From NCBI RefSeq assembly GCF_054482525.1, contig NZ_CM137006.1: a stretch of DNA of 64,000 nt; one strand, 5' to 3'. A program made the position numbers and the translations under genes. The notes under the pieces are model-generated. The model saw nothing but the letters and a program-made list of their open reading frames with translations. It was not told where the DNA came from and ran no database searches. Shown here piece by piece: positions 4,813-64,000 of the stretch; within the stretch, counting starts at the first letter, position 1, and each line of letters starts with the position of its first letter.

Positions 4813-4814
4813 GC

Positions 4815-5780: not shown

Positions 5781-5782
5781 TG

Positions 5783-13322: not shown

Positions 13323-13393
13323 GTTGTTGTTTTAGGCACTGGCAATAAAAACAACAACATAACCTCACCTGGCATCAAATTTATGAGGAAAAA

Positions 13394-25333: not shown

Positions 25334-26341
25334 ATGAAAATATTATATGATGGGATTGTGAAAAGTTTACAATCATATGGTGGTATCACTGTATACTTTG
25401 AAGAAATCATTAAGAGATTAAAAAATGACGAATACAAATTCATTCAATTTAATGATAAAAATGAAAATCACAATGATGATCTCCATCGGCCATGCCGGTT
25501 TTTAGAACGATATAGATGTTTTGAAGCATTAAAAAGTGATTCAGATTACAGTATATTTCATTCTACATATTATCGGGTTCCGAAAGATGGGGAATATGCG
25601 GTTGTGACCACGGTCCACGATTTCACATATGAATTGTATATGAAAGGACTTCGGCGCAATGTTCATAGCTTACAAAAAAGATGGGCTGTGAAACATAGCG
25701 ATGCAATCATTTGTGTCTCTAATAATACAGCCAAGGATTTAATTAATTTCTTTAAGGTTGATGAAAAAAAGATACATGTTATTCATAATGGTGTATCGGA
25801 AGATTATAGACACTTAAATCTAGAAAAAGAAAATTTTGTGCTTTTTGTCGGTGCTCGTTCAGGATATAAAAATTTTGAGCTTGCAGTTAAAGCCGTTTCT
25901 AAACTTTTTGATACTAATCTTAAAATAGTCGGCGGAGGTGGTTTAAATAAAGCAGAAATGAAGTTACTATCTGAATATCTTCCAGAAAGATTCCAGTACT
26001 TAGGGAAGGTATCAAATGAAAAACTAAATATATTATATAATTCGGCTTATTGCTTAATCTATCCTTCAGAATATGAAGGGTTTGGAATTCCCTTGCTTGA
26101 GGCTATGCGAACTGGCTGTCCTGTGATAGCCGTAAATAGATCATCAATACCCGAGGTTGTGGGGGATAGTGCGATTTTAGTCGAAGAAGTATCAATTGAA
26201 AGTTTATTCTCAGCTTTATTAAGTGTAGAAGCTAACGCTAATGAATTAAAAAATAAAGGATTAGCGCAATCTAATAAATTTTCATGGGGGAAGTGTTTCT
26301 CCGAAACATATAATCTATATAAATCACTATCTAAGTTTTGA
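25334..26341 (+). CDS. Glycosyltransferase family 4
   Basis: 335 aa; [21 protein letters not shown] motif (E-x7-E). Confidence 0.78.
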
Positions 26342-26351
26342 GAGGTTATTT

Positions 26352-27473
26352 ATGTGTAAGAAAGCTTTAATTACAGGAATTACCGGGCAAGATGGTTCCT
26401 ACTTGGCAGAATTTCTGCTTAAAAAAGGCTATGAGGTTCATGGAATAAAACGTCGATCTTCCTTGTTTAATACTGACCGTATTGATCATATATATCAAGA
26501 CCCACACCATCGTAATTTAAAATTACAACTTCATTATGGTGATTTAACAGATACTTCTAATTTGACTCGGATATTATCTGAAGTTCAACCTGATGAAGTT
26601 TATAATCTTGGCGCAATGAGTCACGTAGCTGTTTCCTTCGAATCCCCAGAATATACAGCTGATGTTGATGCTATAGGTACTTTACGATTATTGGAAGCTA
26701 TTCGTTTTTTGGGATTAGAAAAAAAAACCCGATTTTATCAGGCGTCAACCTCTGAATTGTATGGATTAGTTCAGGAAGTTCCACAAAAAGAGACAACGCC
26801 GTTCTATCCTCGTTCACCTTATGCCGTAGCTAAACTGTATGCATATTGGATCACTGTAAACTATCGTGAGTCTTATGGAATGTATGCATGTAACGGTATT
26901 TTGTTCAATCATGAATCCCCACGTCGTGGGGAAACGTTTGTAACACGTAAAATCACACGTGCTATAGCTAATATATCGCAGGGAATAGAAAAATGCTTAT
27001 ATCTTGGCAACATGGATTCTTTACGCGATTGGGGGCATGCGAAAGATTATGTTCGTATGCAATGGATGATGCTTCAACAAGACCAGCCAGAAGACTTTGT
27101 TATTGCCACCGGCAAACAAATATCTGTACGTGAATTTGTCCGTATGTCTGCTAAAGAAGTTGGACTTGAACTTGAGTTTTCCGGTACTGGTGTTGATGAG
27201 ATTGCATTTGTTGTAAATAAAACATCAGATTGCGCCGTTGGTGTTAATATTGGTGATGTTATTGTTCGCGTTGACCCTCGTTATTTTCGACCAGCAGAAG
27301 TTGAAACTCTTCTTGGTGATCCAACAAAAGCAAAAAATGTCTTGGGTTGGGAGCCAGAGATTACAGTTGAAGAAATGTGTGCAGAAATGGTGGCTAGTGA
27401 TTTAGAAAAAGCTAAACAGCATGCACTTCTTAAAAGCCATGGTTTTGACGTGGCAGTCTCTTTGGAGCGTTAA
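26352..27473 (+). CDS. gmd: GDP-mannose 4,6-dehydratase (O-antigen copy, low GC)
   Basis: 373 aa; protein highly similar to colanic acid Gmd (3691..4812) but with divergent, AT-richer codon usage. Confidence 0.93.
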
Positions 27474-27476
27474 AGT

Positions 27477-28442
27477 ATGACCAAGAAGCGAATTTTTGTG
27501 GCTGGACATCGTGGGATGGTTGGTTCTGCTATTTGTCGTCAATTATTAGCACGTAATGATGTTGAGTTAATTGTCAAAACTCACAAAGAACTCGATTTGA
27601 CAGTTCAAAAGGATGTTGAATGTTTTTTTGAGCAAGAGAGAATAGATCAGGTTTACCTTGCAGCAGCAAAAGTAGGAGGAATTCATGCTAATAACACTTT
27701 TCCAGCTGAATTTATTTATCAGAACCTTCTTATTGAAAGCAATATTATTCACTCATCTTACAAAGCGGGCATAAAGAAACTATTATTCTTAGGGTCAAGT
27801 TGTATCTATCCAAAGTTTGCAGAACAGCCAATGAAAGAATCTGCACTTTTGACGGGAACTCTTGAGCCTACTAATGAGCCTTATGCTATTTCCAAAATAG
27901 CAGGTATAAAGCTATGTGAATCTTATAATCGCCAATATGGATGTGATTATCGCAGTGTAATGCCTACTAACTTATATGGTATGAATGATAATTTTCATCC
28001 CAATAACTCACATGTAATTCCAGCGCTTATGCGGCGTTTTCATGAAGCAAAGGAACTTGGTTTAAATGAAGTGGTTGTCTGGGGAACGGGAACTCCAAAA
28101 CGCGAGTTTTTATATGTTGATGATATGGCCGCTGCATCAGTATATGTGATGGAGCTTGATGATGAAATTTATAAAAAAAATACTCAACCAATGTTATCTC
28201 ATATTAACGTAGGTACTGGTGTTGATTGTTCCATACGTGAAATGGCAGAAACAATGGCTTTAGTTGTTGGCTATGATGGAAAAATTGTTTTTGATATAAC
28301 AAAACCAGATGGTTCGCCTCGTAAACTTATGGATGTTACACGCCTTGAGAATTTGGGTTGGAAATATCGTTATAATTTAAAACAAGGACTAGAATTAACA
28401 TATAAATGGTTTATAAATAATCTTGACTCATTTAGGAGTTAA
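27477..28442 (+). CDS. fcl: GDP-L-fucose synthase (O-antigen copy)
   Basis: 321 aa; paralogue of 4815..5780 with the same motifs. Confidence 0.93.
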
Positions 28443-28444
28443 TA

Positions 28445-28900
28445 TTGAACAAGAGATTAGAAACAGAGTTATTTAAATCAATAGTTGAACATACTCCACT
28501 AATCTCGATAGACCTTATTATAAGAAACGAAGATGGTAAGGCGCTGCTTGGTCAGCGCCTTAATCGTCCAGCACAAAATTATTGGTTTGTGCCGGGGGGA
28601 CGGATTCTTAAAGATGAGTCTTTCGAGAACGCATTCAAAAGAGTTACTTTAGAAGAATTGGGTGTTCAAATTAGCATTAATGAAGCAAAATTTCTTGGGA
28701 TTTATGAACATTTCTACAGCGACAATTTTTCTGGGACTTGTTTTTCAACTCATTATGTCGTACACGGATATGAGATTAGTTTGATGCCACATCAAATTAA
28801 CTATCCAACACTACAACATAGTACTTACAATTGGTTCGATATAGCCGAATTGTTAGCTAATTCCTCAGTTCATCAGTACACAAAAAATTATTTTAAGTGA
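28445..28900 (+). CDS. gmm: GDP-mannose mannosyl hydrolase (O-antigen copy; apparent TTG start)
   Basis: 151 aa; aligns with colanic acid Gmm (NRPAQ.YWFVPGG); no in-frame ATG near the start, TTG at 28445 just after the fcl stop. Confidence 0.8.
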   Translation: MNKRLETELFKSIVEHTPLISIDLIIRNEDGKALLGQRLNRPAQNYWFVPGGRILKDESFENAFKRVTLEELGVQISINEAKFLGIYEHFYSDNFSGTCFSTHYVVHGYEISLMPHQINYPTLQHSTYNWFDIAELLANSSVHQYTKNYFK

Positions 28901-28911
28901 AGGTTATTTAT

Positions 28912-30297
28912 ATGCTACTTCCTGTTGTAATGGCCGGTGGTTCTGGAACTAGATTGTGGCCACTTTCTCGAACACTATATCCGAAGCAATTCCTATCGTT
29001 AACTAGTCGTTTGACTATGCTACAAGAGACCTTAAGAAGGCTTGAAGGGGTTGAACATCGTCCTGCTCTGGTTATTTGTAATGAAGTTCATCGTTTTATC
29101 GTTGCAGAACAGATGCGTAATGTAAATTTAGCGAATAGTGGCATTTTACTAGAGCCGATAGGTCGTAATACAGCCCCCGCAGTTGCGCTTGCTGCTCTTA
29201 AAGCGATTTCATCAGGTGAGGATCCAATACTGCTTGTACTAGCAGCCGATCATGAAATACAAGACCAAAAGCGCTTTATATCGTCAATATTGGCTGCAAA
29301 AGAATTTGCAGAGGAAGGTAAGCTGGTAACTTTTGGTATTGTGCCAACCAAACCCGAAACTGGATATGGCTACATAAAAACCGGAGAAAATTTAAATGAA
29401 TATGGTTTTAAAGTTTCTGCTTTTGTTGAAAAGCCTGAGCTAGATGTGGCCAAAAAATATCTTGAAGATGGAGATTATCTTTGGAATAGTGGAATATTCA
29501 TGTTTAGGGCTTCTGTGTTTATTGATGAGTTGAATAAATTTAGACCAGACATACTAAAAATATGCCAACAAGCATTGAAGTCCTCTACACAAGATCTTGA
29601 TTTTATCCGTATAGATAATGACTCATTTAGTTGTTGCCCTGAAGAATCCATTGATTACGCTGTTATGGAGAAAACAACAGAGGCTGTGGTAGTTCCATTA
29701 AATGCCCACTGGAGCGATGTTGGTTCTTGGTCTGCATTATGGGAAATTAGCAGAAAAGATAAAAGTGGAAATGCAATTAGAGGAGATGTATTAATTCATG
29801 ATTCTTCTGACAGTTATCTTTACTCACAACATAGATTAATTGGTGTAGTAGGAGTTAAAGATTTAGTAGTTGTTGAAACTAAAGATGCTATTCTCGTTGC
29901 GCATAAAGATAAAGTTCAACAGGTAAAAAATATTGTAGAAAAACTTAAAGTTAATAACCGTACGGAATATCTGCAGCATCGTGAAATATTTAGGCCATGG
30001 GGCAGTCATGACTCTATAGCGGAAGGATCTCGATTTGAGGTTAAACATGTCGTTATTCATCCTGGACATAAAACTGCTAAACAGATTCATTACCATCGTA
30101 CTGAGCATTGGATTGTTGTTTCTGGAACAGCAAAAGTCCATTATGAAGATGAAATATTTCTTGTTTCTGAAAATGAATCAACTTATATACCAATAGGTGT
30201 ACCTCATTTTATTGAGAATCCAGGAAAGATCCCTTTGGAGATTATTGAGGTACGTTCAGGTGTCTACTTGGATGAAGATGATGTTGTTAGAATCTAA
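28912..30297 (+). CDS. manC: Mannose-1-phosphate guanylyltransferase (O-antigen copy)
   Basis: ORF 28897..30297; start chosen at [16 protein letters not shown] (ATG 28912) by alignment with CpsB; low-GC paralogue. Confidence 0.9.
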   Translation: MLLPVVMAGGSGTRLWPLSRTLYPKQFLSLTSRLTMLQETLRRLEGVEHRPALVICNEVHRFIVAEQMRNVNLANSGILLEPIGRNTAPAVALAALKAISSGEDPILLVLAADHEIQDQKRFISSILAAKEFAEEGKLVTFGIVPTKPETGYGYIKTGENLNEYGFKVSAFVEKPELDVAKKYLEDGDYLWNSGIFMFRASVFIDELNKFRPDILKICQQALKSSTQDLDFIRIDNDSFSCCPEESIDYAVMEKTTEAVVVPLNAHWSDVGSWSALWEISRKDKSGNAIRGDVLIHDSSDSYLYSQHRLIGVVGVKDLVVVETKDAILVAHKDKVQQVKNIVEKLKVNNRTEYLQHREIFRPWGSHDSIAEGSRFEVKHVVIHPGHKTAKQIHYHRTEHWIVVSGTAKVHYEDEIFLVSENESTYIPIGVPHFIENPGKIPLEIIEVRSGVYLDEDDVVRI

Positions 30298-30368
30298 AAT
30301 GATGCTGGATACTAATGCAACATTATTATTCGTAATGCTGTACTGACGTTATTTAATTATGATTATTA

Positions 30369-31127
30369 TTGGATGTTAAAATGAAAGTCAGTATTATTAC
30401 AGTGACTTATAATAGTGAAAAGACTTTAAGGGATACTTTAGAGTCAATAGAGTTGCAAACCTATAAAGATATAGAGTATATAATTATTGATGGTGGTTCT
30501 ACAGATAATACGTTAAAACTAATTAACGAAGTATCAACAAGAGTAACCAAATGTCTATCAGAAAGCGATAACGGTATCTATGATGCTTTAAATAAAGGTA
30601 TAAATTTATCTACGGGAGATATTATTGGATTCGTTCATTCTGATGACCTTTTAGCAAGACCTGATATTATTGAAACTATTGTAAGCCGTTTCCATGAGAC
30701 AAAAGCGGATGTTGTATACGGTGATTTGGTTTTTTTCGAAAAAAACCAAACTGATATAATCAAACGATACTGGCGTAGTGGTCCTTTTAAACGTTCTAAG
30801 CTATCATTAGGCTGGGCACCACCGCATCCATCTTTCTATATGAGGAGGGAATTATATAAAGACGATGGATATTTTGATTTATCCTATAGGATTGCTGCAG
30901 ACTATGATCAGATGGTCAGGATTTTGAAACGTGATGATATTAAAGTTATTTATGTTCCTCAAGTATTTGTAAAGATGAGATTGGGTGGGGAAAGTACCAG
31001 AATTGATAACGCGATATCAAGTACAAAGGAAATTGTAGAAGTTATGAAAAACCATAATGTAAATTGGAAAATTGCTATCATTATCAGAAAAATCTCAAAA
31101 CTAATGCAATTGTTTGCGCATAAATAA
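30369..31127 (+). CDS. Glycosyltransferase family 2 (WcaE-like), inserted between manC and manB
   Basis: 252 aa; IIDGGSTDNT and DNGIYDALNKG motifs; start may be the internal Met at 30381. Confidence 0.8.
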   Translation: MDVKMKVSIITVTYNSEKTLRDTLESIELQTYKDIEYIIIDGGSTDNTLKLINEVSTRVTKCLSESDNGIYDALNKGINLSTGDIIGFVHSDDLLARPDIIETIVSRFHETKADVVYGDLVFFEKNQTDIIKRYWRSGPFKRSKLSLGWAPPHPSFYMRRELYKDDGYFDLSYRIAADYDQMVRILKRDDIKVIYVPQVFVKMRLGGESTRIDNAISSTKEIVEVMKNHNVNWKIAIIIRKISKLMQLFAHK

Positions 31128-31151
31128 TTTTATTATTGGTAAGGTTTTTAT

Positions 31152-32522
31152 ATGAAAAAATTAACCTGCTTTAAAGCCTATGATATTCGCGGGAAATTAG
31201 GCGAAGAACTGAATGAAGATATTGCGTGGCGCATTGGTCGCGCCTATGGCGAATTTCTCAAACCGAAAACCATTGTGTTAGGCGGTGACGTCCGCCTCAC
31301 CAGCGAAACCTTAAAACTGGCGCTGGCGAGAGGTTTACAGGATGCGGGCGTCGATGTGCTGGATATCGGCATGTCCGGCACCGAAGAGATCTATTTCGCC
31401 ACGTTCCATCTCGGCGTGGATGGCGGCATTGAAGTTACCGCCAGCCATAATCCGATGGATTATAACGGCATGAAGCTGGTTCGCGAGGGGGCTCGCCCGA
31501 TCAGCGGAGATACCGGACTGCGCGACGTCCAGCGTCTGGCTGAAGCCAACGACTTTCCTCCCGTCGATGAAACCAAACGCGGTCGCTATCAGCAAATCAA
31601 CCTGCGTGACGCTTACGTTGATCACCTGTTCGGTTATATCAATGTCAAAAACCTCACGCCGCTCAAGCTGGTGATCAACTCCGGGAACGGCGCAGCGGGT
31701 CCGGTGGTGGACGCTATCGAAGCCCGCTTTAAAGCCCTCGGCGCACCTGTGGAATTGATCAAAGTGCACAACACGCCGGACGGCAATTTCCCCAACGGTA
31801 TTCCTAACCCGCTGCTGCCGGAATGTCGCGACGACACCCGCAATGCGGTCATTAAACACGGCGCGGATATGGGCATTGCCTTTGATGGCGATTTTGACCG
31901 CTGTTTCCTGTTTGACGAAAAAGGGCAGTTTATCGAGGGCTACTACATTGTCGGCCTGCTGGCAGAAGCGTTCCTCGAAAAAAATCCCGGCGCGAAGATC
32001 ATCCACGATCCACGTCTCTCCTGGAATACCGTTGATGTGGTGACCGCCGCGGGCGGCACACCGGTGATGTCGAAAACCGGACACGCCTTTATTAAAGAAC
32101 GTATGCGCAAGGAAGACGCCATCTACGGTGGCGAAATGAGCGCCCACCACTATTTCCGTGATTTCGCTTACTGCGACAGCGGCATGATCCCGTGGCTGCT
32201 GGTCGCCGAACTGGTGTGTCTGAAAGGAAAAACGCTGGGCGAACTGGTGCGCGACCGGATGGCAGCGTTTCCGGCAAGCGGTGAGATCAACAGCAAACTG
32301 GCGCAACCCGCTGAGGCGATTAATCGCGTCGAACAGCATTTTAGCCGTGAGGCGCTGGCGGTGGATCGCACCGATGGCATCAGCATGACCTTTGCCGACT
32401 GGCGCTTTAACCTGCGCTCCTCCAACACCGAACCGGTGGTGCGCCTGAATGTGGAATCGCGCGGTGATGTGCCGCTGATGGAAGAAAAGACAAAACTTAT
32501 CCTTGCGTTATTGAACAAGTAA
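31152..32522 (+). CDS. manB: Phosphomannomutase (O-antigen copy; mosaic, near-identical to cpsG over most of its length)
   Basis: 456 aa; spot comparisons of 60-bp blocks against 9023..10393 show 0-3 mismatches each; only the last ~40-50 bp diverge. Confidence 0.93.
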
Positions 32523-32685
32523 TTCAGTAATTTCATATAAATAAGTTTTAAAAGACGGAAAAGATGAGATATTCAGTGTGGTATAGCAAAGGTACTGCTA
32601 TTCACCATCTCTATGAGTGAGTTAACATCTATACCACATTTAAGCCGCACACTCGGCGGTGAACACCCCCTGACAGGAGTATACA

Positions 32686-34092
32686 ATGTCAAAGCAACAG
32701 ATCGGCGTCGTCGGTATGGCAGTGATGGGGCGCAACCTTGCGCTCAACATCGAAAGCCGTGGTTATACCGTCTCTATTTTCAACCGTTCCCGTGAAAAGA
32801 CGGAAGAAGTGATTGCCGAAAATCCAGGCAAGAAACTGGTTCCTTACTATACAGTGAAAGAGTTTGTTGAATCTCTGGAAACGCCTCGTCGCATCCTGTT
32901 AATGGTGAAAGCAGGTGCTGGCACGGATGCTGCTATTGATTCCCTCAAACCATACCTCGATAAAGGTGACATCATCATTGATGGTGGTAATACCTTCTTC
33001 CAGGACACCATTCGTCGTAACCGTGAGCTTTCTGCCGAAGGCTTTAACTTCATTGGTACCGGTGTTTCCGGTGGTGAAGAAGGCGCGCTGAAAGGTCCTT
33101 CCATTATGCCTGGTGGGCAGAAAGAAGCCTATGAACTGGTTGCACCGATCCTGACCAAAATCGCCGCAGTGGCTGAAGACGGTGAGCCATGCGTTACCTA
33201 TATCGGTGCCGATGGTGCAGGCCATTATGTGAAGATGGTTCACAACGGTATTGAATACGGCGATATGCAACTGATTGCTGAAGCCTATTCTCTGCTTAAA
33301 GGTGGCCTGAACCTCACCAACGAAGAACTGGCGCAGACCTTTACCGAGTGGAATAACGGTGAACTGAGCAGCTACCTGATCGACATCACCAAAGACATCT
33401 TCACTAAAAAAGATGAAGACGGTAACTACCTGGTTGATGTGATCCTGGATGAAGCGGCTAACAAAGGTACCGGTAAATGGACCAGCCAGAGCGCGCTGGA
33501 TCTCGGAGAACCGCTGTCGCTGATTACCGAGTCTGTGTTTGCACGTTATATCTCTTCTCTGAAAGATCAGCGCGTTGCCGCATCTAAAGTTCTCTCTGGT
33601 CCGCAAGCTCAGTCAGCAGGCGACAAGGCTGAGTTCATCGAAAAAGTTCGCCGTGCGCTGTATCTGGGCAAAATCGTTTCTTACGCTCAGGGCTTCTCTC
33701 AGCTGCGTGCTGCGTCTGAAGAATACAACTGGGATCTGAACTACGGCGAAATCGCGAAGATTTTCCGTGCTGGCTGCATCATCCGTGCGCAGTTCCTGCA
33801 GAAAATCACCGATGCATATGCCGAAAATCCGCAGATCGCTAACCTGCTGCTGGCTCCGTACTTCAAGCAAATTGCCGATGACTACCAGCAGGCGCTGCGT
33901 GATGTCGTTGCTTATGCAGTACAGAACGGTATCCCGGTTCCGACCTTCGCCGCTGCGGTTGCCTATTACGATAGCTACCGTGCCGCTGTTCTGCCTGCGA
34001 ACCTGATCCAGGCACAGCGTGACTATTTCGGTGCACATACTTATAAGCGCATTGATAAAGAAGGTGTGTTCCATACTGAATGGCTGGATTAA
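32686..34092 (+). CDS. gnd: 6-phosphogluconate dehydrogenase, decarboxylating
   Basis: 468 aa; N-terminal [19 protein letters not shown]-binding motif; canonical position after the O-antigen cluster. Confidence 0.96.
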
Positions 34093-34119
34093 TCTGATTT
34101 AACCAACAATAAAATTGAG

Positions 34120-34150
34120 GCCCGGCGTATATTGCACCGGGCTTTTTTTT
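34120..34150 (+). terminator. Rho-independent terminator downstream of gnd
   Basis: Stem gcccgg/ccgggc with 11-nt loop followed by T8 run, read directly. Confidence 0.7.
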
Positions 34151-34331
34151 GCCATTTATCTTATAGACTAAATTTCACTGCTTAATATTAACTTAATAAA
34201 TATCAGCTATTCTTATAAAGAAAATCTGAATTGTTTTTCGTTGCGTTGACCATCTTACAACGTAGCGTTAAAACTTTTAACTCTTATCAGGATGCTAAAA
34301 ACATCATGATTCACAGTTAAGTTAATTCTGA

Positions 34332-35507
<1,176 letters not shown>

Positions 35508-35649
35508 CATCTTGTTATCAGGGCTATTTACGCCCTGATTGTCTTTTGTTACTTCCTCAACAATTCATTATTTTTATCATTTATCCTATAGCATTCACGA
35601 GGATTATCGCTAAACTATGCGGACTTGGAAATTTCCGTCAGTTAGGGTA

Positions 35650-36630
35650 ATGATGAGAGTAGAAAATAATAATGTTTCTGGGCAAAACCATGACCCGGAA
35701 CAGATTGATTTGATTGATTTACTAATGCAGTTGTGGCGTGGCAAGATGACAATCATCATCTCTGTCATTGTTGCTATTGCCCTGGCTATAGGGTATCTGG
35801 CCGTTGCCAAAGAAAAGTGGACTTCCACAGCTATCGTTACTCAACCTGATGTGGGGCAAATCGCTGGCTATAACAATGCCATGAATGTTATCTATGGTCA
35901 GGCTGCACCGAAAGTGTCAGATTTGCAGGAGACGTTGATTGGTCGCTTCAGTTCTGCCTTCTCTGCATTAGCAGAAACGCTGGATAATCAGGAAGAACCA
36001 GAAAAACTTACCATCGAACCTTCTGTTAAGAACCAGCAATTACCATTGACTGTTTCTTATGTTGGGCAAACTGCAGAGGGCGCACAAATGAAGTTGGCCC
36101 AATACATTCAGCAAGTTGACGATAAAGTGAATCAAGAGCTAGAAAAGGATCTCAAAGACAACATTGCTCTGGGACGGAAAAACTTGCAGGACTCTTTAAG
36201 AACCCAGGAAGTGGTTGCGCAGGAGCAGAAAGATCTGCGCATCCGTCAGATTCAGGAAGCGTTGCAGTATGCGAATCAGGCGCAGGTGACAAAACCACAG
36301 GTTCAGCAGACTGAAGATGTGACGCAAGATACGTTGTTCCTTTTGGGGAGCGAAGCGCTGGAGTCGATGATTAAGCATGAGGCGACCCGTCCGTTGGTGT
36401 TCTCACCAAACTACTATCAGACTCGTCAAAACCTGCTGGATATCGAAAACTTAAAGGTTGATGATCTTGATATTCATGCTTACCGCTATGTGATGAAACC
36501 GACGTTACCTATTCGTCGCGATAGCCCGAAAAAGGCAATTACATTGATTCTGGCGGTGCTGCTGGGCGGCATGGTTGGCGCGGGGATTGTGTTGGGGCGT
36601 AACGCTCTGCGTAATTACAACGCGAAGTAA
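35650..36630 (+). CDS. wzzB: O-antigen chain-length determinant WzzB (polysaccharide co-polymerase)
   Basis: ORF 35617..36630; start taken at MRVENNNVSGQ (326 aa); N- and C-terminal TM segments with coiled-coil periplasmic domain. Confidence 0.9.
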   Translation: MMRVENNNVSGQNHDPEQIDLIDLLMQLWRGKMTIIISVIVAIALAIGYLAVAKEKWTSTAIVTQPDVGQIAGYNNAMNVIYGQAAPKVSDLQETLIGRFSSAFSALAETLDNQEEPEKLTIEPSVKNQQLPLTVSYVGQTAEGAQMKLAQYIQQVDDKVNQELEKDLKDNIALGRKNLQDSLRTQEVVAQEQKDLRIRQIQEALQYANQAQVTKPQVQQTEDVTQDTLFLLGSEALESMIKHEATRPLVFSPNYYQTRQNLLDIENLKVDDLDIHAYRYVMKPTLPIRRDSPKKAITLILAVLLGGMVGAGIVLGRNALRNYNAK

Positions 36631-44327: not shown

Positions 44328-44579
44328 ATGCGTACAATTAGCTACAGCGAAGCGCGTCAGAATTTGTCGGCAACAATGATGAAAGCCGTTGATGATCATG
44401 CCCCGATCCTTATTACTCGTCAGAATGGAGAGGCTTGTGTTCTGATGTCACTCGAAGAATACAACTCCCTGGAGGAGACGGCTTATCTACTGCGTTCCCC
44501 CGCTAACGCCCGGAGATTGATGGACTCAATCGATAGCCTGAAATCTGGCAAAGGAACGGAAAAGGACATCATTGAGTGA
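44328..44579 (+). CDS. yefM: Type II antitoxin YefM
   Basis: ORF 44301..44579; start at [17 protein letters not shown] gives 83 aa; 4-bp overlap with yoeB. Confidence 0.93.
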
Positions 44580-44830
44580 AACTAATCTGGTCTGAGGAAT
44601 CATGGGATGATTATCTGTACTGGCAGGAAACAGATAAGCGAATTGTTAAAAAGATCAATGAACTTATCAAAGATACCCGCAGAACGCCATTTGAAGGTAA
44701 GGGGAAGCCAGAACCCCTGAAACATAATTTGTCAGGTTTCTGGTCCCGACGCATTACAGAGGAGCACCGTCTGGTATACGCGGTTACCGACGATTCACTG
44801 CTCATTGCAGCATGTCGTTATCATTATTGA
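44576..44830 (+). CDS. yoeB: Type II toxin YoeB (ribosome-dependent mRNA interferase)
   Basis: 84 aa; RelE/YoeB fold C-terminal ...RYHY. Confidence 0.93.
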
Positions 44831-53661: not shown

Positions 53662-53934
53662 TTAGCGACAGCCTTCTTCTGTATGCAGCAAGGCAAAAAG
53701 TTCTGCAACTCCATTGTTATTAACCGCACTGGTTACTAACACATTGTGCGCTCCAGCTTCCCGTAACCAACTTTTCACCAAAGATATTTGTTCCATGCTG
53801 GCTAAATCTGCTTTGGTGACTACTCCAATAACAGGGCGATTCATTGACGAGGTAAAGCCTGGCGAAAAAGGGGACCACGGTGTGTCCGCATTAAGCACCA
53901 GGGCGATAATGTCTGCTTCGCAGGCGCTGACCAA
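53662..53934 (-). pseudogene. Fragment of an EutP/PduV-family GTPase (C-terminal part only)
   Basis: 90 aa ORF with G4-like TKADL and [13 protein letters not shown] segments but no P-loop; flanked by short ORFs without recognisable domains. Confidence 0.45.
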
Positions 53935-54429
53935 CAGAGCACTGTAGAGGCTGCGGTTTTATCTGTGAGGACTGGCAGCAAGATTTCCAGCCTCTTGACG
54001 GTGGGCCTGTGCAATCGTTATCAGATGCGTATAGCGATTATTCAGTGCTGCTATTGATAGCAGCTGAAAGCGAGATATCCGTACCAGAATGGCTCCCTCA
54101 TTCTGAGGGAACGACGGTAATTGTGATTGCAGAACACAATGCCCGTTTGCTGACTGGTCCGGCTGGTGGGGCTGTGGCATTGATCCATTATCTGAATGAA
54201 ATCTGTCATTCCAGAGAAACCGCTGTCAATGACGCATTTTGTCGGACGTTAACACGAGGAAGTCTGGCTATTCCGCAATGCCATCTTCTTTCGTAATGGA
54301 TTGAGAATGCTGGATTTTTAATTATATTACGCGCAGTATTAATCGCGTAAATGTTTTGCGGTCAGCAACGGTGGGGGATCCATTGTTCTGTTCAATGAAT
54401 ACCATCATACAATTGAATCAGGAGTCGGT

Positions 54430-57803: not shown

Positions 57804-57825
57804 GAGCGTTGGTAATTAGAAAGCA

Positions 57826-57853
57826 AAAAGCCTGCTTGAAAGCAGGCTTTTTT
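57826..57853. terminator. Bidirectional terminator between ldtA and asnV
   Basis: Hairpin aagcctgctt-gaa-agcaggctt with T6 downstream and A5 upstream. Confidence 0.7.
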
Positions 57854-57858
57854 GAATT

Positions 57859-57934
57859 TGGCTCCTCTGACTGGACTCGAACCAGTGACATACGGATTAA
57901 CAGTCCGCCGTTCTACCGACTGAACTACAGAGGA
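57859..57934 (-). tRNA. asnV: tRNA-Asn (GUU)
   Basis: 76-nt sequence whose reverse complement is TCCTCTGTAGTTCAGTCGGTAGAACGGCGGACTGTTAATCCGTATGTCACTGGTTCGAGTCCAGTCAGAGGAGCCA; cloverleaf with GTT anticodon and CCA end. Confidence 0.95.
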
Positions 57935-58055
57935 ATCGTGTGAACGGGGCGCATATTAATGGCAGTGCATGGTGATGTCAAAGGGTGAAATGCATTTTTT
58001 TGTTTGTTTGCTGTCAATTTCAACAAAGTGGTGAGCTTTCAATCTTATTGGGTAA

Positions 58056-58072
58056 TGAACCATCGTGGTGCA
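58056..58072 (+). promoter_or_regulatory. Putative NtrC enhancer site upstream of nac
   Basis: tgaaccatcgtggtgca resembles the TGCACC-N5-GGTGCA NtrC consensus, ~120 bp upstream of the sigma-54 promoter. Confidence 0.45.
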
Positions 58073-58189
58073 TACCCTCCTTTTATAGGGCAGGGGAACG
58101 CGACAGCTGATAAAAAGAGCCAATGACGAATCTATCATAATCTCTTATTTGACAGTTGGTTAGCTTGTACATCAACGCCAAAATAAAAC

Positions 58190-58205
58190 TGGCAAGCATC
58201 TTGCA
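58190..58205 (+). promoter_or_regulatory. Sigma-54 (-24/-12) promoter of nac
   Basis: TGGCAAGCATCTTGCA matches the TGGCAC-N5-TTGCA consensus; ~55 bp upstream of the nac ATG. Confidence 0.85.
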
Positions 58206-58260
58206 ATCTGGTTGTAAGTAATGGCGGCACTTGGGCCGATTCTTATAAACCGGAGGCAAC

Positions 58261-59178
58261 ATGAACTTCAGACGCCTGAAATACTTCGTAAAAATTGTAG
58301 ATATTGGTAGCCTGACCCAGGCTGCTGAAGTATTGCATATCGCACAACCAGCGCTCAGTCAGCAGGTTGCCACACTGGAAGGTGAGTTAAATCAACAACT
58401 TTTGATTCGCACAAAACGGGGCGTTACGCCAACTGACGCCGGAAAAATTCTCTATACCCATGCGCGGGCCATTTTACGTCAGTGTGAGCAGGCCCAACTG
58501 GCGGTGCATAACGTTGGTCAGGCATTATCGGGGCAAGTCTCGATTGGCTTTGCACCAGGAACCGCTGCGTCATCCATCACCATGCCCTTATTACAGGCGG
58601 TTCGCGCTGAATTTCCGGAGGTCGTTATCTATCTTCATGAAAATAGCGGTGCAGTGCTTAACGAAAAACTGATAAATCACCAACTCGATATGGCGGTGAT
58701 TTATGAGCATTCCCCTGTGGCTGGTGTATCCAGTCAGGCTTTACTGAAAGAAGATCTTTTTCTGGTAGGAACTCAAGATTGCCCGGGGCAAAGCGTTGAT
58801 GTTAATGCTATCGCGCAAATGAACCTCTTTCTCCCCAGTGATTACAGTGCTGTTAGACTTCGTGTTGATGAGGCTTTTTCCCTACGGCGACTCACGGCAA
58901 AAGTCATTGGTGAAATTGAGTCTATTGCCACGCTTACCGCAGCGATTGCCAGCGGCATGGGCGTTGCAGTATTACCCGAATCGGCCGCGCGTTCGTTATG
59001 TGGCGCAGTAAACGGATGGATGTCACGCATTACCACACCTTCCATGAGTCTCTCTTTGTCATTAAATTTACCCGCCAGAGCGAACTTATCACCACAGGCG
59101 CAAGCAGTGAAAGAGTTGTTAATGTCAGTGATGAGTTCTCCAGTGATGGAAAAAAGGCAGTGGCAATTGGTGAGCTAA
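58261..59178 (+). CDS. nac: Nitrogen assimilation control protein Nac (LysR family)
   Basis: 305 aa; LysR wHTH; sigma-54 promoter upstream; synteny with cbl. Confidence 0.92.
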   Translation: MNFRRLKYFVKIVDIGSLTQAAEVLHIAQPALSQQVATLEGELNQQLLIRTKRGVTPTDAGKILYTHARAILRQCEQAQLAVHNVGQALSGQVSIGFAPGTAASSITMPLLQAVRAEFPEVVIYLHENSGAVLNEKLINHQLDMAVIYEHSPVAGVSSQALLKEDLFLVGTQDCPGQSVDVNAIAQMNLFLPSDYSAVRLRVDEAFSLRRLTAKVIGEIESIATLTAAIASGMGVAVLPESAARSLCGAVNGWMSRITTPSMSLSLSLNLPARANLSPQAQAVKELLMSVMSSPVMEKRQWQLVS

Positions 59179-59279
59179 GCATTATATCGGGATGGAATAA
59201 GATGCGGGTTTTTATTATTTGTTATGCCGGGCATTAGACTTTAACAATAACGGGAAATCTGAACTGCCCGGAGTTTACC

Positions 59280-60230
59280 GTGAATTTCCAACAACTAAAG
59301 ATAATCCGCGAGGCTGCACGTCAGGATTACAACCTGACAGAGGTTGCGAATATGCTTTTTACCTCACAGTCCGGCGTCAGCCGTCATATTCGGGAACTGG
59401 AGGATGAACTTGGCATCGAAATATTTGTTCGACGAGGTAAGCGACTGCTGGGCATGACTGAACCGGGCAAAGCATTACTGGTCATTGCAGAACGTATTCT
59501 GAATGAAGCCAGTAATGTTCGTCGGCTTGCAGACCTGTTTACCAACGATACGTCTGGCGTTCTCACTATTGCAACGACGCATACTCAGGCACGTTATAGC
59601 TTGCCTGAGGTCATTAAAGCTTTTCGCGAACTTTTCCCGGAGGTTCGGCTGGAGCTAATCCAGGGTACACCACAGGAAATTGCGACGTTGTTGCAAAATG
59701 GCGAAGCTGATATTGGTATCGCCAGCGAGCGTTTAAGTAATGACCCGCAGCTCGTCGCCTTCCCGTGGTTTCGTTGGCACCATAGTTTGCTTGTTCCACT
59801 CGATCATCCCTTGACGCAAATTACACCGTTGACGCTGGAATCAATAGCGAAGTGGCCGTTAATTACTTACCGACAGGGAATTACGGGGCGCTCACGTATT
59901 GATGACGCATTTGTCCGCAAAGGTTTGCTGGCAGATATTGTATTAAGTGCGCAGGATTCTGATGTCATTAAAACCTATGTTGCTCTTGGGCTGGGGATTG
60001 GATTAGTTGCCGAACAATCCAGCGGCGAACAAGAGGAAGAGAATTTAATCCGTCTGGATACGCGGCATCTTTTCGATGCCAATACTGTATGGTTGGGACT
60101 GAAGCGAGGGCAACTTCAACGTAACTATGTCTGGCGCTTTCTGGAACTTTGTAATGCAGGACTGTCAGTTGAGGATATCAAGCGCCAGGTGATGGAGAAC
60201 AGTGAAGAGGAAATTGATTATCAGATATAG
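59280..60230 (+). CDS. cbl: CysB-like transcriptional activator Cbl (LysR family)
   Basis: 316 aa; LysR family; immediately downstream of nac. Confidence 0.92.
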   Translation: MNFQQLKIIREAARQDYNLTEVANMLFTSQSGVSRHIRELEDELGIEIFVRRGKRLLGMTEPGKALLVIAERILNEASNVRRLADLFTNDTSGVLTIATTHTQARYSLPEVIKAFRELFPEVRLELIQGTPQEIATLLQNGEADIGIASERLSNDPQLVAFPWFRWHHSLLVPLDHPLTQITPLTLESIAKWPLITYRQGITGRSRIDDAFVRKGLLADIVLSAQDSDVIKTYVALGLGIGLVAEQSSGEQEEENLIRLDTRHLFDANTVWLGLKRGQLQRNYVWRFLELCNAGLSVEDIKRQVMENSEEEIDYQI

Positions 60231-60267
60231 CAAAAAGCCCGCTATAAAAGCGGGCTTTTCAGAAATT

Positions 60268-60343
60268 TGGCTCCTCTGACTGGACTCGAACCAGTGACAT
60301 ACGGATTAACAGTCCGCCGTTCTACCGACTGAACTACAGAGGA
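60268..60343 (-). tRNA. asnU: tRNA-Asn (GUU)
   Basis: Identical 76-nt sequence to 57859..57934. Confidence 0.95.
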
Positions 60344-60503
60344 ATCGCTGTTGAGGCACATCTTAACGGCGAAAAATCTTTTGTCAAACCCGATTTTTAA
60401 ATTTCCCAACTGTTTGCCGTTTCTATCAACAGTTTGTTGCATTTGCAGACAATTTGTTGGCGAAAATCTTTGCAGCTTTGCTGATTCTCCCTCATTATTT
60501 GAA

Positions 60504-61991
60504 ATGTGGTTTCACTTTCTGCAATTAAGGTCGGCTTTGAATATCTCCTCTGCTTTACGCCAGGTTGTTCACGGCACTCGCTGGCACGCTAAACGCAAGA
60601 GCTACAAAGTGTTGTTCTGGCGCGAGATAACCCCGCTTGCTGTTCCTATCTTCATGGAGAATGCCTGTGTCCTGTTGATGGGGGTTCTGAGCACTTTTCT
60701 GGTCAGCTGGCTGGGAAAAGATGCGATGGCCGGCGTGGGATTGGCGGACAGCTTCAATATGGTCATTATGGCTTTTTTTGCAGCTATCGATCTTGGTACT
60801 ACTGTCGTTGTGGCATTTAGTCTCGGTAAGCGGGATCGACGACGAGCGAGGGTGGCGACGCGGCAGTCATTGGTGATCATGACGTTGTTTGCCGTACTGT
60901 TGGCAACGCTTATTCATCATTTTGGCGAACAAATTATTGATTTCGTCGCGGGTGATGCCACGACAGAAGTTAAAGCACTGGCGTTGACTTATCTGGAGCT
61001 GACGGTACTCAGTTATCCAGCAGCTGCCATCACTTTGATTGGTAGCGGGGCACTTCGTGGTGCAGGGAATACGAAAATACCGCTACTGATTAACGGTAGC
61101 CTGAATATTCTTAATATTATTATTAGCGGCATATTGATTTACGGCCTTTTCTCCTGGCCGGGACTGGGATTTGTCGGGGCTGGGTTGGGGTTAACCATTT
61201 CTCGTTATATTGGCGCAGTGGCAATTTTGTGGGTGCTGGCGATTGGTTTTAATCCTGCGCTAAGGATTTCGTTAAAGAGCTATTTTAAACCGCTGAATTT
61301 TAGCATTATCTGGGAAGTCATGGGGATTGGTATTCCAGCGAGTGTCGAATCAGTATTATTTACCAGTGGTCGGTTATTAACCCAAATGTTCGTTGCCGGG
61401 ATGGGGACCAGTGTTATTGCCGGGAATTTTATCGCGTTTTCAATTGCGGCTCTTATCAACTTACCCGGAAGTGCGCTCGGCTCTGCTTCTACGATCATTA
61501 CAGGCCGAAGGTTGGGGGTAGGGCAGATAGCGCAAGCAGAGATTCAGTTGCGGCATGTGTTCTGGCTGTCCACTCTTGGATTAACGGCCATCGCCTGGCT
61601 AACGGCTCCCTTTGCCGGGGTTATGGCATCGTTTTACACCCAGGATCCACAGGTTAAACATGTCGTTGTAATTCTGATTTGGCTAAATGCTTTATTTATG
61701 CCTATTTGGTCTGCCTCATGGGTGCTACCCGCTGGATTTAAGGGTGCTCGCGATGCCCGTTACGCCATGTGGGTTTCTATGTTGAGCATGTGGGGTTGCC
61801 GGGTTGTAGTCGGTTATGTGCTGGGAATCATGCTTGGTTGGGGTGTGGTTGGTGTCTGGTTGGGAATGTTTGCCGACTGGGCTGTGCGGGCCGTGCTGTT
61901 TTACTGGCGAATGGTTACTGGACGTTGGCTATGGAAATACCCTCGACCCGAGCCGCAAAAGTGTGAAAAAAAGCCAGTTGTGTCGGAATAA
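60504..61991 (+). CDS. yeeO: MATE-family efflux transporter YeeO
   Basis: ORF 60351..61991; start taken at MWFHFLQLRS (495 aa) because the longer ORF begins 8 bp after the tRNA; 12-TM MATE topology. Confidence 0.88.
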   Translation: MWFHFLQLRSALNISSALRQVVHGTRWHAKRKSYKVLFWREITPLAVPIFMENACVLLMGVLSTFLVSWLGKDAMAGVGLADSFNMVIMAFFAAIDLGTTVVVAFSLGKRDRRRARVATRQSLVIMTLFAVLLATLIHHFGEQIIDFVAGDATTEVKALALTYLELTVLSYPAAAITLIGSGALRGAGNTKIPLLINGSLNILNIIISGILIYGLFSWPGLGFVGAGLGLTISRYIGAVAILWVLAIGFNPALRISLKSYFKPLNFSIIWEVMGIGIPASVESVLFTSGRLLTQMFVAGMGTSVIAGNFIAFSIAALINLPGSALGSASTIITGRRLGVGQIAQAEIQLRHVFWLSTLGLTAIAWLTAPFAGVMASFYTQDPQVKHVVVILIWLNALFMPIWSASWVLPAGFKGARDARYAMWVSMLSMWGCRVVVGYVLGIMLGWGVVGVWLGMFADWAVRAVLFYWRMVTGRWLWKYPRPEPQKCEKKPVVSE

Positions 61992-62044
61992 ACGACAAAA
62001 TGCAGATTATTTCAGCAAACGATTTCAAATTTAAAAAACAGGCT

Positions 62045-62073
62045 TTGACATTGTGGATGGGCATCGCTAATAT
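62045..62073 (+). promoter_or_regulatory. Sigma-70 promoter of asnW (TTGACA-17 bp-TAATAT, GC-rich discriminator)
   Basis: ctttgacattgtggatgggcatcgctaatattcgcctcg read directly ~20 bp upstream of the tRNA. Confidence 0.7.
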
Positions 62074-62091
62074 TCGCCTCGTTCTCACGAT

Positions 62092-62167
62092 TCCTCTGTA
62101 GTTCAGTCGGTAGAACGGCGGACTGTTAATCCGTATGTCACTGGTTCGAGTCCAGTCAGAGGAGCCA
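62092..62167 (+). tRNA. asnW: tRNA-Asn (GUU)
   Basis: Third identical copy, opposite orientation to the other two. Confidence 0.95.
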
Positions 62168-62328
62168 AATTCAAGTTTTCATGCTTATCTGTACGTCTCT
62201 ATTTGTTTACGATTCAGTAAGTTAGCGTGAAAATCCTTCCCAGTGCGTATCTGGTTTTCTCTCTGCATCGGGATAATTTGGTGGTCAGATCTGGGGTCAG
62301 TTTGGTTCGATTCTGGAGTGACCCCCAA

Positions 62329-63591
62329 ATGTCTTTAAACGATTCTAAAATCCGCAAGTTAAAACCCTCTTCCCGTCCGGTAAAACTCTCCGACTCTCAC
62401 GGTCTGTATCTGCTCGTCAATCCGGGCGGTTCACGCATCTGGTATCTCAAATATCGTTTCAACGGAAAAGAATCCAGAGTCAGTCTTGGCGCATACCCGC
62501 TTGTCTCACTGGCAGAAGCCAGGCAACAGCGCGACGGTATCCGTAAGTTACTGGCGCAGAATATCAACCCGGCGCAGCAGCGCATGGCGGAGGAAGCGGC
62601 CTGCTCCCCTGAAAAGTGCTTTAAGGCAGTGGCGCTGGCCTGGCACAAAACCAACAAAAAATGGTCGGCTGATTATGCCGCCCGTATTCTCGCCAGTATG
62701 GAAAACCATATCTTCCCGGCGATTGGTCATCTGCCCGTTGCCACTCTTAAAACGCAGGATTTCACTGCTTTGTTGCGGGTTATCGAGGATAAAGGCTTTC
62801 TGGAAGTCGCGTCCCGAACCCGGCAGCAACTCAGCAACATCATGCGCTATGCCGTTCAGCAGGGGCTTACCGAAAGCAATCCGGCGCAGCATCTGGATGG
62901 CGTTGTCGCCTCACCCGTAAAGAACCACTACCCCGCGTTACTGCTGGAGCGGTTGCCCGAACTGCTTGGCCGCATCGGTGACTATCAGCAGGGCCGGGAG
63001 TTAACACGGCTGGCGGTGGTGCTGACGTTGCACCTGTTTATCCGTTCCAGCGAACTGCGTTTCGCCCGCTGGAGCGAGATCGATTTCAGGCACAAAATCT
63101 GGACCATCCCCGCCACCCGCGAGGCAATCGACAAAGTACGGTTTTCGGGGCGTGGCGCAAAAATACGTACCCCGCATATCGTGCCGCTCTCCCGCCAGGC
63201 GATTGCCATTCTGAAACAGATACAGGAGCTTTCCGGCCATCTGGATCTGGTGTTTCCCGGTGATCATAACTCGTACAAGCCAATGAGTGAAAACACCACC
63301 AACCGGGCGCTACGCCTGATGGGGTATGATACGAAAACTGAAATCTGCGGGCATGGACTCAGGGCGATGGCCTGTAGCGCCCTGGTGGAATCGGAGCTGT
63401 GGTCACGCGATACGGTGGAGCGGCAAATGAGCCACCAGGAGCGTAACAGCGTGCGGGCAGCCTATGTGCATAAAGCGGAGCATCTGGAGGCCAGAAAGGC
63501 CATGATGCAGTGGTGGTCGGATTATCTGGATGTGTGCCGCGAGGGGTATGTTGCGCCGTACATTTATGCCCGGCAGCATAAGGCAGCCTGA
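62329..63591 (+). CDS. P4-type tyrosine integrase (phage integrase family) adjacent to tRNA-Asn
   Basis: ORF 62227..63591; start at MSLNDSKIRKLKP (420 aa); N-terminal P4-integrase-like domain; C-terminal catalytic region with R...HxxR...Y context (HGLRAMACS..., RAAYVH). Confidence 0.9.
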   Translation: MSLNDSKIRKLKPSSRPVKLSDSHGLYLLVNPGGSRIWYLKYRFNGKESRVSLGAYPLVSLAEARQQRDGIRKLLAQNINPAQQRMAEEAACSPEKCFKAVALAWHKTNKKWSADYAARILASMENHIFPAIGHLPVATLKTQDFTALLRVIEDKGFLEVASRTRQQLSNIMRYAVQQGLTESNPAQHLDGVVASPVKNHYPALLLERLPELLGRIGDYQQGRELTRLAVVLTLHLFIRSSELRFARWSEIDFRHKIWTIPATREAIDKVRFSGRGAKIRTPHIVPLSRQAIAILKQIQELSGHLDLVFPGDHNSYKPMSENTTNRALRLMGYDTKTEICGHGLRAMACSALVESELWSRDTVERQMSHQERNSVRAAYVHKAEHLEARKAMMQWWSDYLDVCREGYVAPYIYARQHKAA

Positions 63592-64000
63592 ATCAGAAAT
63601 AGCGGAAATCATTAAAAATGTAAAAGCAGATCCTGATTGACCGGGATCTGCTTATTGTATTGAGAAGTATTACCATTTTTCTGTTATTATCAATCGGAAA
63701 GTATCTAAAAATATTTGTCCCCAAATAATTTTGGTGAAAACCAATCAATAAACCATTTATCAATAGGTAAGTACCGGAAATTATTCCAGTAGAATATTTT
63801 CAGGCGATTGCCTATTAATAAATACATTATTGATAGATAAGTGCCTTCTGTGATTTGCCCGCAAATCACAGAAGATGAAAACCTATCAATACGGGATATT
63901 TTCACGGAAATACCAATTAATACTCCAGAATATCTCCTGACCATATACTCTGAAACCTGTAAGAACTGCATCAGATATTGAGAGACCATATAGATATAAG

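Follow-up and report, generated by a model that had tools for sequence, protein, structure and literature searches.

Three identical tRNA-Asn genes around nac-cbl and yeeO in Escherichia coli and the rearrangements found at them

The window, i.e. the whole 64-kb stretch of DNA that was analysed, is from E. coli. It is 100% identical to strain SCU-102, in which the order ldtA-asnV-nac-cbl-asnU-yeeO-asnW is annotated. ARAGORN detected three tRNA-Asn genes (anticodon GTT) in the window and no more. Each scored 72.6 bits against the tRNA model of Rfam (RF00005; gathering score 29) and matched the full model. From asnV to asnW the cluster spans 4309 bp (57859-62167). The features of the locus are:

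57825..57852, minus strand: asnV terminator hairpin, directly 3' of the gene, located between the stop of ldtA and asnV; stem of 12 pairs with a T run behind it (terminator scan)
57852-57958 with 62068-62174: asnV/asnW inverted repeat, 107 nt, 97% (repeat search)
57855..57938: asnV repeat block, 84 nt exact, direct with the asnU block 60264-60347 (repeat search)
57859..57934, minus strand: asnV, tRNA-Asn(GTT), between ldtA and nac as in SCU-102 (ARAGORN, Rfam RF00005)
57953..57981, minus strand: asnV promoter-like site TTGACA-N17-TAATAT (consensus scan, 10/12 matches)
58261..59178, plus strand: nac, LysR-type nitrogen assimilation regulator, first gene of the asnV-asnU interval (ORF list, RefSeq annotation of SCU-102)
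59280..60230, plus strand: cbl, LysR-type regulator, second gene of the asnV-asnU interval (ORF list, SCU-102 annotation)
60264..60347: asnU repeat block, 84 nt exact, direct with asnV, inverted with the asnW block 62088-62171 (repeat search)
60268..60343, minus strand: asnU, tRNA-Asn(GTT) (ARAGORN, Rfam, SCU-102 annotation)
60360..60387, minus strand: asnU promoter-like site TTGACA-N16-TAAGAT (consensus scan)
60504..61991, plus strand: yeeO, MATE efflux transporter, sole gene of the asnU-asnW interval (SCU-102 annotated start)
62045..62073, plus strand: asnW promoter-like site TTGACA-N17-TAATAT (consensus scan)
62092..62167, plus strand: asnW, tRNA-Asn(GTT), here the attL end of an integrated island (ARAGORN, Rfam, SCU-102 annotation)
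62152..62171, plus strand: 20-bp attachment core CCAGTCAGAGGAGCCAAATT, the last 16 nt of asnW plus AATT (direct repeat at the far end of the island)
62168..64000, plus strand: left 1.8 kb of the island, cut by the window end (SCU-102 annotation, att repeats)
62329..63591, plus strand: island tyrosine integrase, 420 aa, WP_000055679.1 (Pfam Arm-DNA-bind_3, Phage_int_M, Phage_integrase; RefSeq)

A longer yeeO reading frame with a TTG start (from 60351) overlaps asnU and was discarded as a mechanical artefact of ORF listing. A first-pass annotation, made from the letters alone, had placed nac-cbl between asnV and asnU and yeeO between asnU and asnW, and this agrees with the RefSeq annotation of SCU-102. 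It had also described two copies as inverted relative to the third; indeed, asnV and asnU are on the minus and asnW is on the plus strand. The 76-nt sequences which it had called identical were re-aligned without a single difference (76/76 in each pair). Exact identity continues for 4-7 bp on both sides, resulting in exact repeats of 84-89 bp; asnU and asnW form an inverted repeat of 84 nt (100%). A chance origin of three identical 76-mers is impossible; these are paralogous genes. The fourth copy, asnT, is not part of the window; in three other strains checked it was likewise 76/76 identical. E. coli has four redundant genes for tRNA-Asn(GUU), and three of them make up the asnV-asnU-asnW cluster seen here. 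Since the sole Asn isoacceptor is encoded by these copies, their sequences are kept identical.

The promoter-like elements are conserved upstream of asnV, asnU, asnW and asnT in an alignment. The hairpin downstream of asnU was visible only in the alignment of the copies, and the terminator scan found that of asnV. Each copy would be transcribed as a separate unit from a sigma-70 promoter of its own, and asnV and asnU would also carry a terminator just downstream.

In the window asnW is occupied. An island of about 10.65 kb with a P4-type integrase is inserted between the tRNA gene and yeeN; its cargo, an RHS core protein and a TPR protein, is located outside the window (SCU-102 annotation). 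The second copy of the 20-bp core is also outside, 10.65 kb downstream in SCU-102 (L001, 36002-36021). Right after it the native asnW 3' flank resumes and matches that of strains with an empty site. Integrases of one family (96-99.5% amino acid identity) reside at asnW in the window, at asnU in strain 2015C-3107 and at asnV in TC24. On the integrase-proximal side they share the flank AATTCAAGTTTT, and at the opposite end of the islands a remnant of 16 nt is found. The earlier proposal of multiple alternative attachment sites for islands that target tRNA-Asn is supported by these near-identical enzymes. Altogether, at least four integrase families target these tRNA genes. The last 16-24 nt of each asn copy would be the attachment site for islands with P4-type tyrosine integrases, and because each copy has the same 3'-end attachment sequence, any of them could be occupied.

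This is the behavior of known asn-targeting elements: the High Pathogenicity Island (HPI) of Yersinia and E. coli (asnT, also asnV), the pks island (asnW, asnU, asnV) and ICEKp of Klebsiella. As in the window, a P4-type integrase comes directly after the tRNA gene on its 3' side, a direct repeat of the tRNA 3' end marks the far end of the island and a single island family is able to use several identical asn copies. The island examined here differs from both the HPI and the pks island. Its enzyme shares 70% amino acid identity with the pks integrase, and the island carries an RHS core protein and a TPR protein. E. coli K-12 (yeeN-asnW-yeeO-asnU-cbl-nac-asnV-ldtA) shares order, orientation and intervening genes with the window, and K-12 strains are colinear over the block (97.8%). 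In K-12, however, the asnW site is empty, whereas in the window the island of about 10.6 kb, led by its integrase, separates asnW from yeeN. Passages of Auvray et al. 2021 (PMC8209727) and Wami et al. 2021 (PMC8461471) describe that a 4309-bp region is inverted and that islands use asnW, asnU and asnV. The published segment is the one in the window and has the same length, and there too the three asn genes are stated to be 100% identical. Unlike the published inverted pks strains, the window lacks a pks island and is oriented as in K-12, i.e. non-inverted.

The first-pass annotation had suggested that the arrangement be compared across E. coli. This was done with native and synthetic junction queries in 5426 complete E. 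coli genomes, drawn from deposited assemblies. The nac-cbl-asnU-yeeO block was colinear in 5155 of 5426. The native junctions ldtA-asnV-nac, cbl-asnU-yeeO and yeeO-asnW-yeeN were present in 4664, 5177 and 4981 genomes, respectively. All predicted copy-by-copy crossover junctions were found in natural genomes, each as a single end-to-end alignment. Inversion of the entire 4309-bp segment between asnV and asnW, recognized by yeeN-tRNA-nac, was present in 265/5426 genomes. The pks (colibactin) island was at that tRNA in 267, which is nearly the number of whole-segment inversions. Inversion between asnU and asnW, which flips yeeO alone (cbl-tRNA-yeeO3'), occurred in 32/5426 (0.6%), and the ldtA-tRNA-yeeO3' junction in a single genome of the 5426. 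Thus, the orientation is not conserved in all strains, and the repeats behave as the inversion substrates that had been anticipated. The yeeO-only flips fell into six sequence classes, one of them with 20 genomes, i.e. into clusters of near-identical strains; the nac-cbl haplotypes of flipped strains were 1-2% different. Classes and haplotypes, used here in place of a phylogeny, point to probably several independent events.

The same repeats had been considered a substrate for deletion. The corresponding asnV x asnU junction, ldtA-tRNA-yeeO5', does exist (35/5426 genomes), but mostly it does not indicate loss. Deletion of nac-cbl was rejected as a reading of these 35 genomes because nac-cbl was found in 5418/5426 and is absent from at most 8, and because in EC17GD31 it is relocated. 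That nac-cbl loss is almost never seen suggests that these regulators are retained by selection. Per-site occupancy by islands was estimated by subtracting junction counts among the 5426 genomes rather than by direct counts: the asnV 3' end is followed by something other than ldtA in roughly 460 genomes, and the corresponding estimates are about 170 at asnU and about 80 at asnW beyond the classes already named.

Individual rearranged strains were inspected. In LD27-1, LR-06 and TC24 both reciprocal junctions of the yeeO flip were present. In the flipped loci the tRNA was complete at both reciprocal junctions. For the clean flips of LD27-1 and LR-06, where the copies were 76/76 identical and the native 3' flanks were kept, no integrase was annotated in the 11-kb loci examined, a local inspection. 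In EC17GD31, the one relocated strain mapped, nac-cbl is about 45 kb away and adjoins a tRNA-Asn on the asnT side. Here, two segments between three direct tRNA copies exchanged places. The moved nac-cbl was accompanied by an adjacent integrase-bearing T6SS/RHS island, now at the asnT position. Two further strains were more complicated. KL53 has the order yeeN-tRNA-nac-cbl-tRNA-yeeO(-)-tRNA-integrase. This annotated order amounts to a double event that requires two crossovers, so that a simple yeeO flip was rejected for this strain. In SE15 a simple asnV x asnW inversion was rejected: local BLAST identified an extra 1.1-kb partial yeeO copy (91% identical) at the right end plus about 150 bp without a match, which is not a clean tRNA-by-tRNA product. 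Both KL53 and SE15 have an inverted nac-cbl part, yet no pks island at the locus.

These data are best explained, and we hold this with high confidence, by identical tRNA copies which double as island attachment sites and as substrates of homologous recombination. What was observed directly is that the copies are identical, that islands occupy them, and that each recombinant junction exists and how often. The identical blocks of 84-107 bp would supply the homology. A crossover at inverted pairs (asnU/asnW, asnV/asnW) would flip the intervening DNA, and a crossover among direct copies (asnV, asnU, asnT) would excise or relocate segments. Every rearrangement leaves a complete tRNA copy at both junctions. 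In inversions between asnU and asnW or between asnV and asnW, the promoter of every tRNA gene should move along with the 5' part of that gene. With complete tRNAs and promoters that travel with the gene 5' part these inversions would break no gene, and therefore the events look near-neutral as well as rare.

The exchanges were probably made by RecA-type homologous recombination and not by an integrase; the flips without an integrase in the 11-kb loci lend this indirect support. The products of both routes are alike because identical copies hide the crossover point. That island integrases made the rearrangements, by site-specific recombination at the att cores in the tRNA 3' ends, appears rather unlikely to us, even though several observations speak for it. 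At least four integrase families use these tRNAs, the count of the commonest inversion nearly equals that of the pks island with its integrase (265 vs 267 genomes), and in EC17GD31 the nac-cbl segment moved together with an integrase-bearing island. In addition, the inversion is tied to pks acquisition or stabilisation in passages of Auvray et al. (PMC8209727) and Wami et al. (PMC8461471). For the commonest inversion an integrase may have been involved. On the other hand, LD27-1 and LR-06 carry a clean yeeO flip with neither integrase nor island at the three sites within the 11-kb loci examined. Tyrosine integrases of the P4-type island kind require arm sites on one partner, so an exchange of attB with attB, both in bare tRNA genes, would be unexpected.

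Inverted repeats that bracket the single gene yeeO, with both orientations occurring naturally, might also be taken for a programmed switch of yeeO or nac-cbl expression, i.e. phase variation. This is hardly credible. Neither a dedicated invertase nor a promoter or coding change, as in switches of the fimS or Hin type, was found: no invertase is annotated in or beside the segment, and the segment includes the 5' region of yeeO as well as the two tRNA promoters, which move with it, so no promoter is connected or disconnected. A flip in 0.6% of the genomes with clustered inheritance (20 in one class) fits rare fixed events better than rapid switching. Assemblers can be misled by repeats and the census rests on deposited assemblies; nevertheless, that the rearranged genomes are artefacts of assembly is very improbable. 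The repeats of 84-107 bp are below ordinary read length, the same rearrangement recurs in many strains sequenced independently in different laboratories, and the whole-segment inversion was found independently in two studies.

The finding is real and was read correctly, and it is already known: identical copies, landing sites for islands and occasional flips or moves are published. The locus is the E. coli entry point for the pks island, the HPI (yersiniabactin) and several T6SS/RHS islands. It has been put forward that the pks island is locked in place by the way the 4.3-kb segment is oriented, and according to the passages concerned in Auvray et al. (PMC8209727) the inverted orientation was found only in pks-positive B2 strains. 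McDonald et al. 2015 (PMC4539685) name the four asn genes only to illustrate a paralogue cluster and do not mention rearrangements. Added here is a species-wide census, which leaves current understanding unchanged. In about 95% of genomes the arrangement has remained stable, and all rearrangements predicted by the repeat geometry occur, at 0.02-5%. Solely the yeeO-only flips and the relocation of nac-cbl seem unreported. Neither is mentioned in the passages available from Auvray et al. (PMC8209727) and Wami et al. (PMC8461471), and a literature search on yeeO inversion and tRNA recombination brought up no paper on the yeeO-only flips. Both appear to be ordinary products of recombination.

One might go further and consider the four asn genes an interchangeable junction array that reshuffles nac-cbl and yeeO, sometimes as passengers of an integrase-bearing island, an extension which we regard as doubtful. 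If an integrase paired the attL of its island not with the attR belonging to it but with the next tRNA copy, islands would have a route by which core regulators beside them are captured and moved.

Homologous recombination between repeated housekeeping genes also underlies the rrn-operon inversions in Salmonella Typhi. There, as in the asn cluster, identical housekeeping genes are portable homology and no gene is broken. The asn repeats are about 50 times shorter than rrn (84-107 bp vs about 5 kb), and the segments moved measure only 1.7-4.3 kb.

The window holds exactly three tRNA genes (ARAGORN), all tRNA-Asn with anticodon GTT, and each scored 72.6 bits against the Rfam tRNA model:

57859-57934, minus strand: asnV, tRNA-Asn(GTT)
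60268-60343, minus strand: asnU, tRNA-Asn(GTT)
62092-62167, plus strand: asnW, tRNA-Asn(GTT)

The first-pass annotation had called three identical copies here, and alignment over the full 76 nt bore this out. The identity reaches a few bases into the flanks. Thus, asnV and asnU form an exact direct repeat of 84 nt, asnU and asnW an exact inverted repeat of 84 nt, and asnV and asnW, which span 4309 bp, an inverted repeat of 107 nt with 97% identity. A fourth copy, asnT, lies past the window end; it likewise matched 76/76 in each of three strains examined. The window is E. coli and matched strain SCU-102 with 100% identity across 7.2 kb. The annotated order of SCU-102, cobU-cobS-cobT-ldtA-asnV(-)-nac-cbl-asnU(-)-yeeO-asnW(+), corresponds to the K-12 arrangement as seen from the other strand; therefore, the gene names assigned from sequence were right. 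A promoter-like site (TTGACA-N16-17-TAATAT or TAAGAT) lies about 20 bp upstream of each tRNA gene, and a G+C-rich hairpin with a T run directly follows asnV and asnU. They thus form three separate one-gene transcription units. The longest ORF of yeeO (60351-61991) has a TTG start at 60351, 8 bp from asnU and within its promoter region. This start was rejected as an artefact of mechanical ORF listing; the RefSeq start is 60504.

Such repeats had been proposed as substrates for inversion or deletion. We searched 5426 complete E. coli genomes with 976-nt queries (450 nt + tRNA + 450 nt) representing the native junctions and each predicted crossing-over product. A genome was counted if a single place covered at least 80% of the query.

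Genomes with native and recombinant tRNA-Asn junctions
ldtA-asnV-nac, native: 4664
cbl-asnU-yeeO 5' end, native: 5177
yeeO 3' end-asnW-yeeN, native, empty site: 4981
whole block, ldtA end to asnW, colinear: 5155
cbl-tRNA-yeeO 3' end, asnU x asnW inversion: 32
ldtA-tRNA-yeeO 3' end, asnV x asnW inversion: 1
yeeN-tRNA-nac, other end of the asnV x asnW inversion: 265
ldtA-tRNA-yeeO 5' end, asnV x asnU exchange: 35

About 95% of genomes retain this arrangement, and each predicted rearrangement is present at 0.02-5%. Inverted orientations exist, as anticipated. This species-wide census is what the analysis adds; the behavior of the locus is already known. Auvray et al. 2021 (PMC8209727) and Wami et al. 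2021 (PMC8461471) describe inversion of the 4309-bp region and use of asnW, asnU and asnV by islands. The former report 100% identity among the three asn sequences and show pks, the colibactin island, at asnW, asnU or asnV. The observation was confirmed and its interpretation supported. Neither the yeeO-only flip (asnU x asnW) nor nac-cbl relocation turned up in the literature searched; each is an ordinary product of these tRNA repeats.

Clean asnU x asnW products were seen in LD27-1, LR-06 and TC24, which read ldtA-tRNA-nac-cbl-tRNA-yeeO(reversed)-tRNA-yeeN. In each strain the three tRNA genes remain whole and retain their native 3' flanks, which places the crossover inside the identical block. 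The 32 yeeO-flipped genomes fall into six sequence classes (1, 3, 1, 2, 5 and 20 genomes), and nac-cbl of four flipped strains diverges by 1-2%, as between unrelated lineages. Therefore, the flip probably arose several times. In C 237-04 the whole segment is inverted, and pks (integrase, clbS, clbQ etc.) lies behind a tRNA with the yeeO-side flank. SE15 (L003, its fetched locus, 12665-13913) also has the whole asnV-asnW segment inverted, and at the right end of the inversion the junction does not run through a tRNA. There, the nac upstream region breaks off 18 bp short of the expected tRNA start and is followed by about 150 bp without match, a partial second yeeO 3' copy only 91% identical to the window, asnW and yeeN.

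The copies are most likely identical because they encode the only Asn isoacceptor of the cell. Identity makes them interchangeable landing sites for integrases recognizing the tRNA 3' end and also provides short homology for general recombination. In inversions of asnU or asnV with asnW the promoter, located 5' of the gene, travels along with it and the terminator stays on the 3' flank side. Since the two tRNA genes are whole at either junction and protein genes remain unbroken, such inversions should be close to neutral. We infer that the exchanges were RecA-type from the flips in LD27-1 and LR-06, where no integrase is annotated within the 11-kb loci examined. An integrase may have had a part in the pks-linked inversion: the pks junction as in C 237-04 occurs in 267 genomes, nearly equal to the 265 with yeeN-tRNA-nac, and Auvray et al. 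2021 (PMC8209727) suggest that the inversion accompanied pks acquisition at asnW.

The ldtA-tRNA-yeeO junction was mostly refuted as a nac-cbl deletion: nac-cbl is present in 5418/5426 genomes, so no more than 8 of the 35 with this junction can lack it. One of the 35, EC17GD31, was mapped in full. It reads mtfA-asnT-integrase-(T6SS/RHS island)-att remnant-cbl-nac-tRNA-integrase-(RHS island)-yeeJ...yeeN and continues att remnant-island-integrase-asnW-yeeO-tRNA-ldtA. In this map, two segments lying between three tRNA copies in direct orientation have swapped places. This needs two crossovers, e.g. excision of an asnV-asnU circle and its re-insertion at asnT; the product is the same under homologous recombination or integrase action. 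In this region (L008, L010, L011, L018; ~2.90-3.00 Mb) nac-cbl has moved by about 45 kb to the asnT side, where it lies between two islands with similar integrase and RelE/ParE heads; one of the islands carries an entire T6SS cluster. The region also holds three IS3 copies, which may have contributed to the rearrangement. The integrase-proximal island end 3' of asnT (L018 22019-22080) starts with a sequence much like the native asnW 3' flank, AATTTTAGTCTTGAGACATCTCTAT...; the asnT island appears to carry a copy of a tRNA-downstream flank, possibly acquired at an earlier asnW-type site. Outright nac-cbl loss is almost never seen. The complete genomes of WS4202 (O157:H7, L016) and FHI_NMBU_03 (L017) are without asnV, asnU, asnW, nac, cbl and yeeO, the whole region being gone. 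Since both keep asnT as sole copy, a single tRNA-Asn gene is evidently enough for viability. In WS4202 a truncated yeeJ adjoins an IS1203 copy.

An island occupies asnW in the window and extends beyond it:

62329-63591, plus strand: tyrosine integrase, 420 aa, with arm-binding, central and catalytic domains
62168-64000 and onward outside (L001, the locus continuing past the window end, 25369-36021): island at asnW, ~10.65 kb, bounded by a 20-bp direct repeat

The integrase starts 161 bp past asnW and has the domain set typical of P4-type integrases. The 20-bp repeat comprises the 3'-terminal 16 nt of asnW followed by AATT, with a second copy 10.65 kb downstream in the source strain, beyond which the native asnW 3' flank of empty-site strains resumes. 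Only the first 1.8 kb lie within the window. According to the SCU-102 annotation the cargo is a 4.2-kb RHS core protein gene and a TPR protein, then yeeN; a frameshifted second integrase-like gene and an HTH gene are also present. The asnW-integrase junction was matched in only 68/5426 genomes. Related islands occupy asnU or asnV in other strains. The window integrase has 96.2% aa identity to those at asnU (2015C-3107) and asnV (TC24), which share 99.5% with each other, and the integrase-proximal junction sequence AATTCAAGTTTT is common to all three; as expected, 2015C-3107 has a 16-nt remnant towards cbl. Thus, one island family uses all three genes, which supports the predicted multiple alternative attachment sites. 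The loci fetched contain at least three further integrase types next to asn tRNA genes: that of pks shares 70% identity with the window integrase, those of KL53 and EC17GD31 about 52%. In E12 a different island sits at asnU and has left a 24-nt remnant. A review (PMC7545054) gives asnT or asnV as the site of HPI, the yersiniabactin island, and asnW as that of pks.

Elsewhere in the window, gmd, fcl and GDP-mannose mannosyl hydrolase (GDP-fucose/GDP-mannose genes) occur twice on the same strand (~3691-6780 and ~26352-29420), one set in the colanic acid cluster, the other in an O11-family O-antigen cluster. The two sets are long direct paralogue blocks that have diverged, with about 22 kb between them. 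As in K-12, yefM-yoeB, an ordinary type II toxin-antitoxin pair, sits between the his leader and yeeZ (44328-44830). Between tmaR and cobU, where K-12 has the CP4-44 prophage, 53662-54296 holds in the source strain a pseudogene fragment of the EutP/PduV family and one small hypothetical gene. This stretch appears to be what is left of the pdu/cob region; in other strains the position is taken by pduF-pocR and a cobalamin riboswitch.
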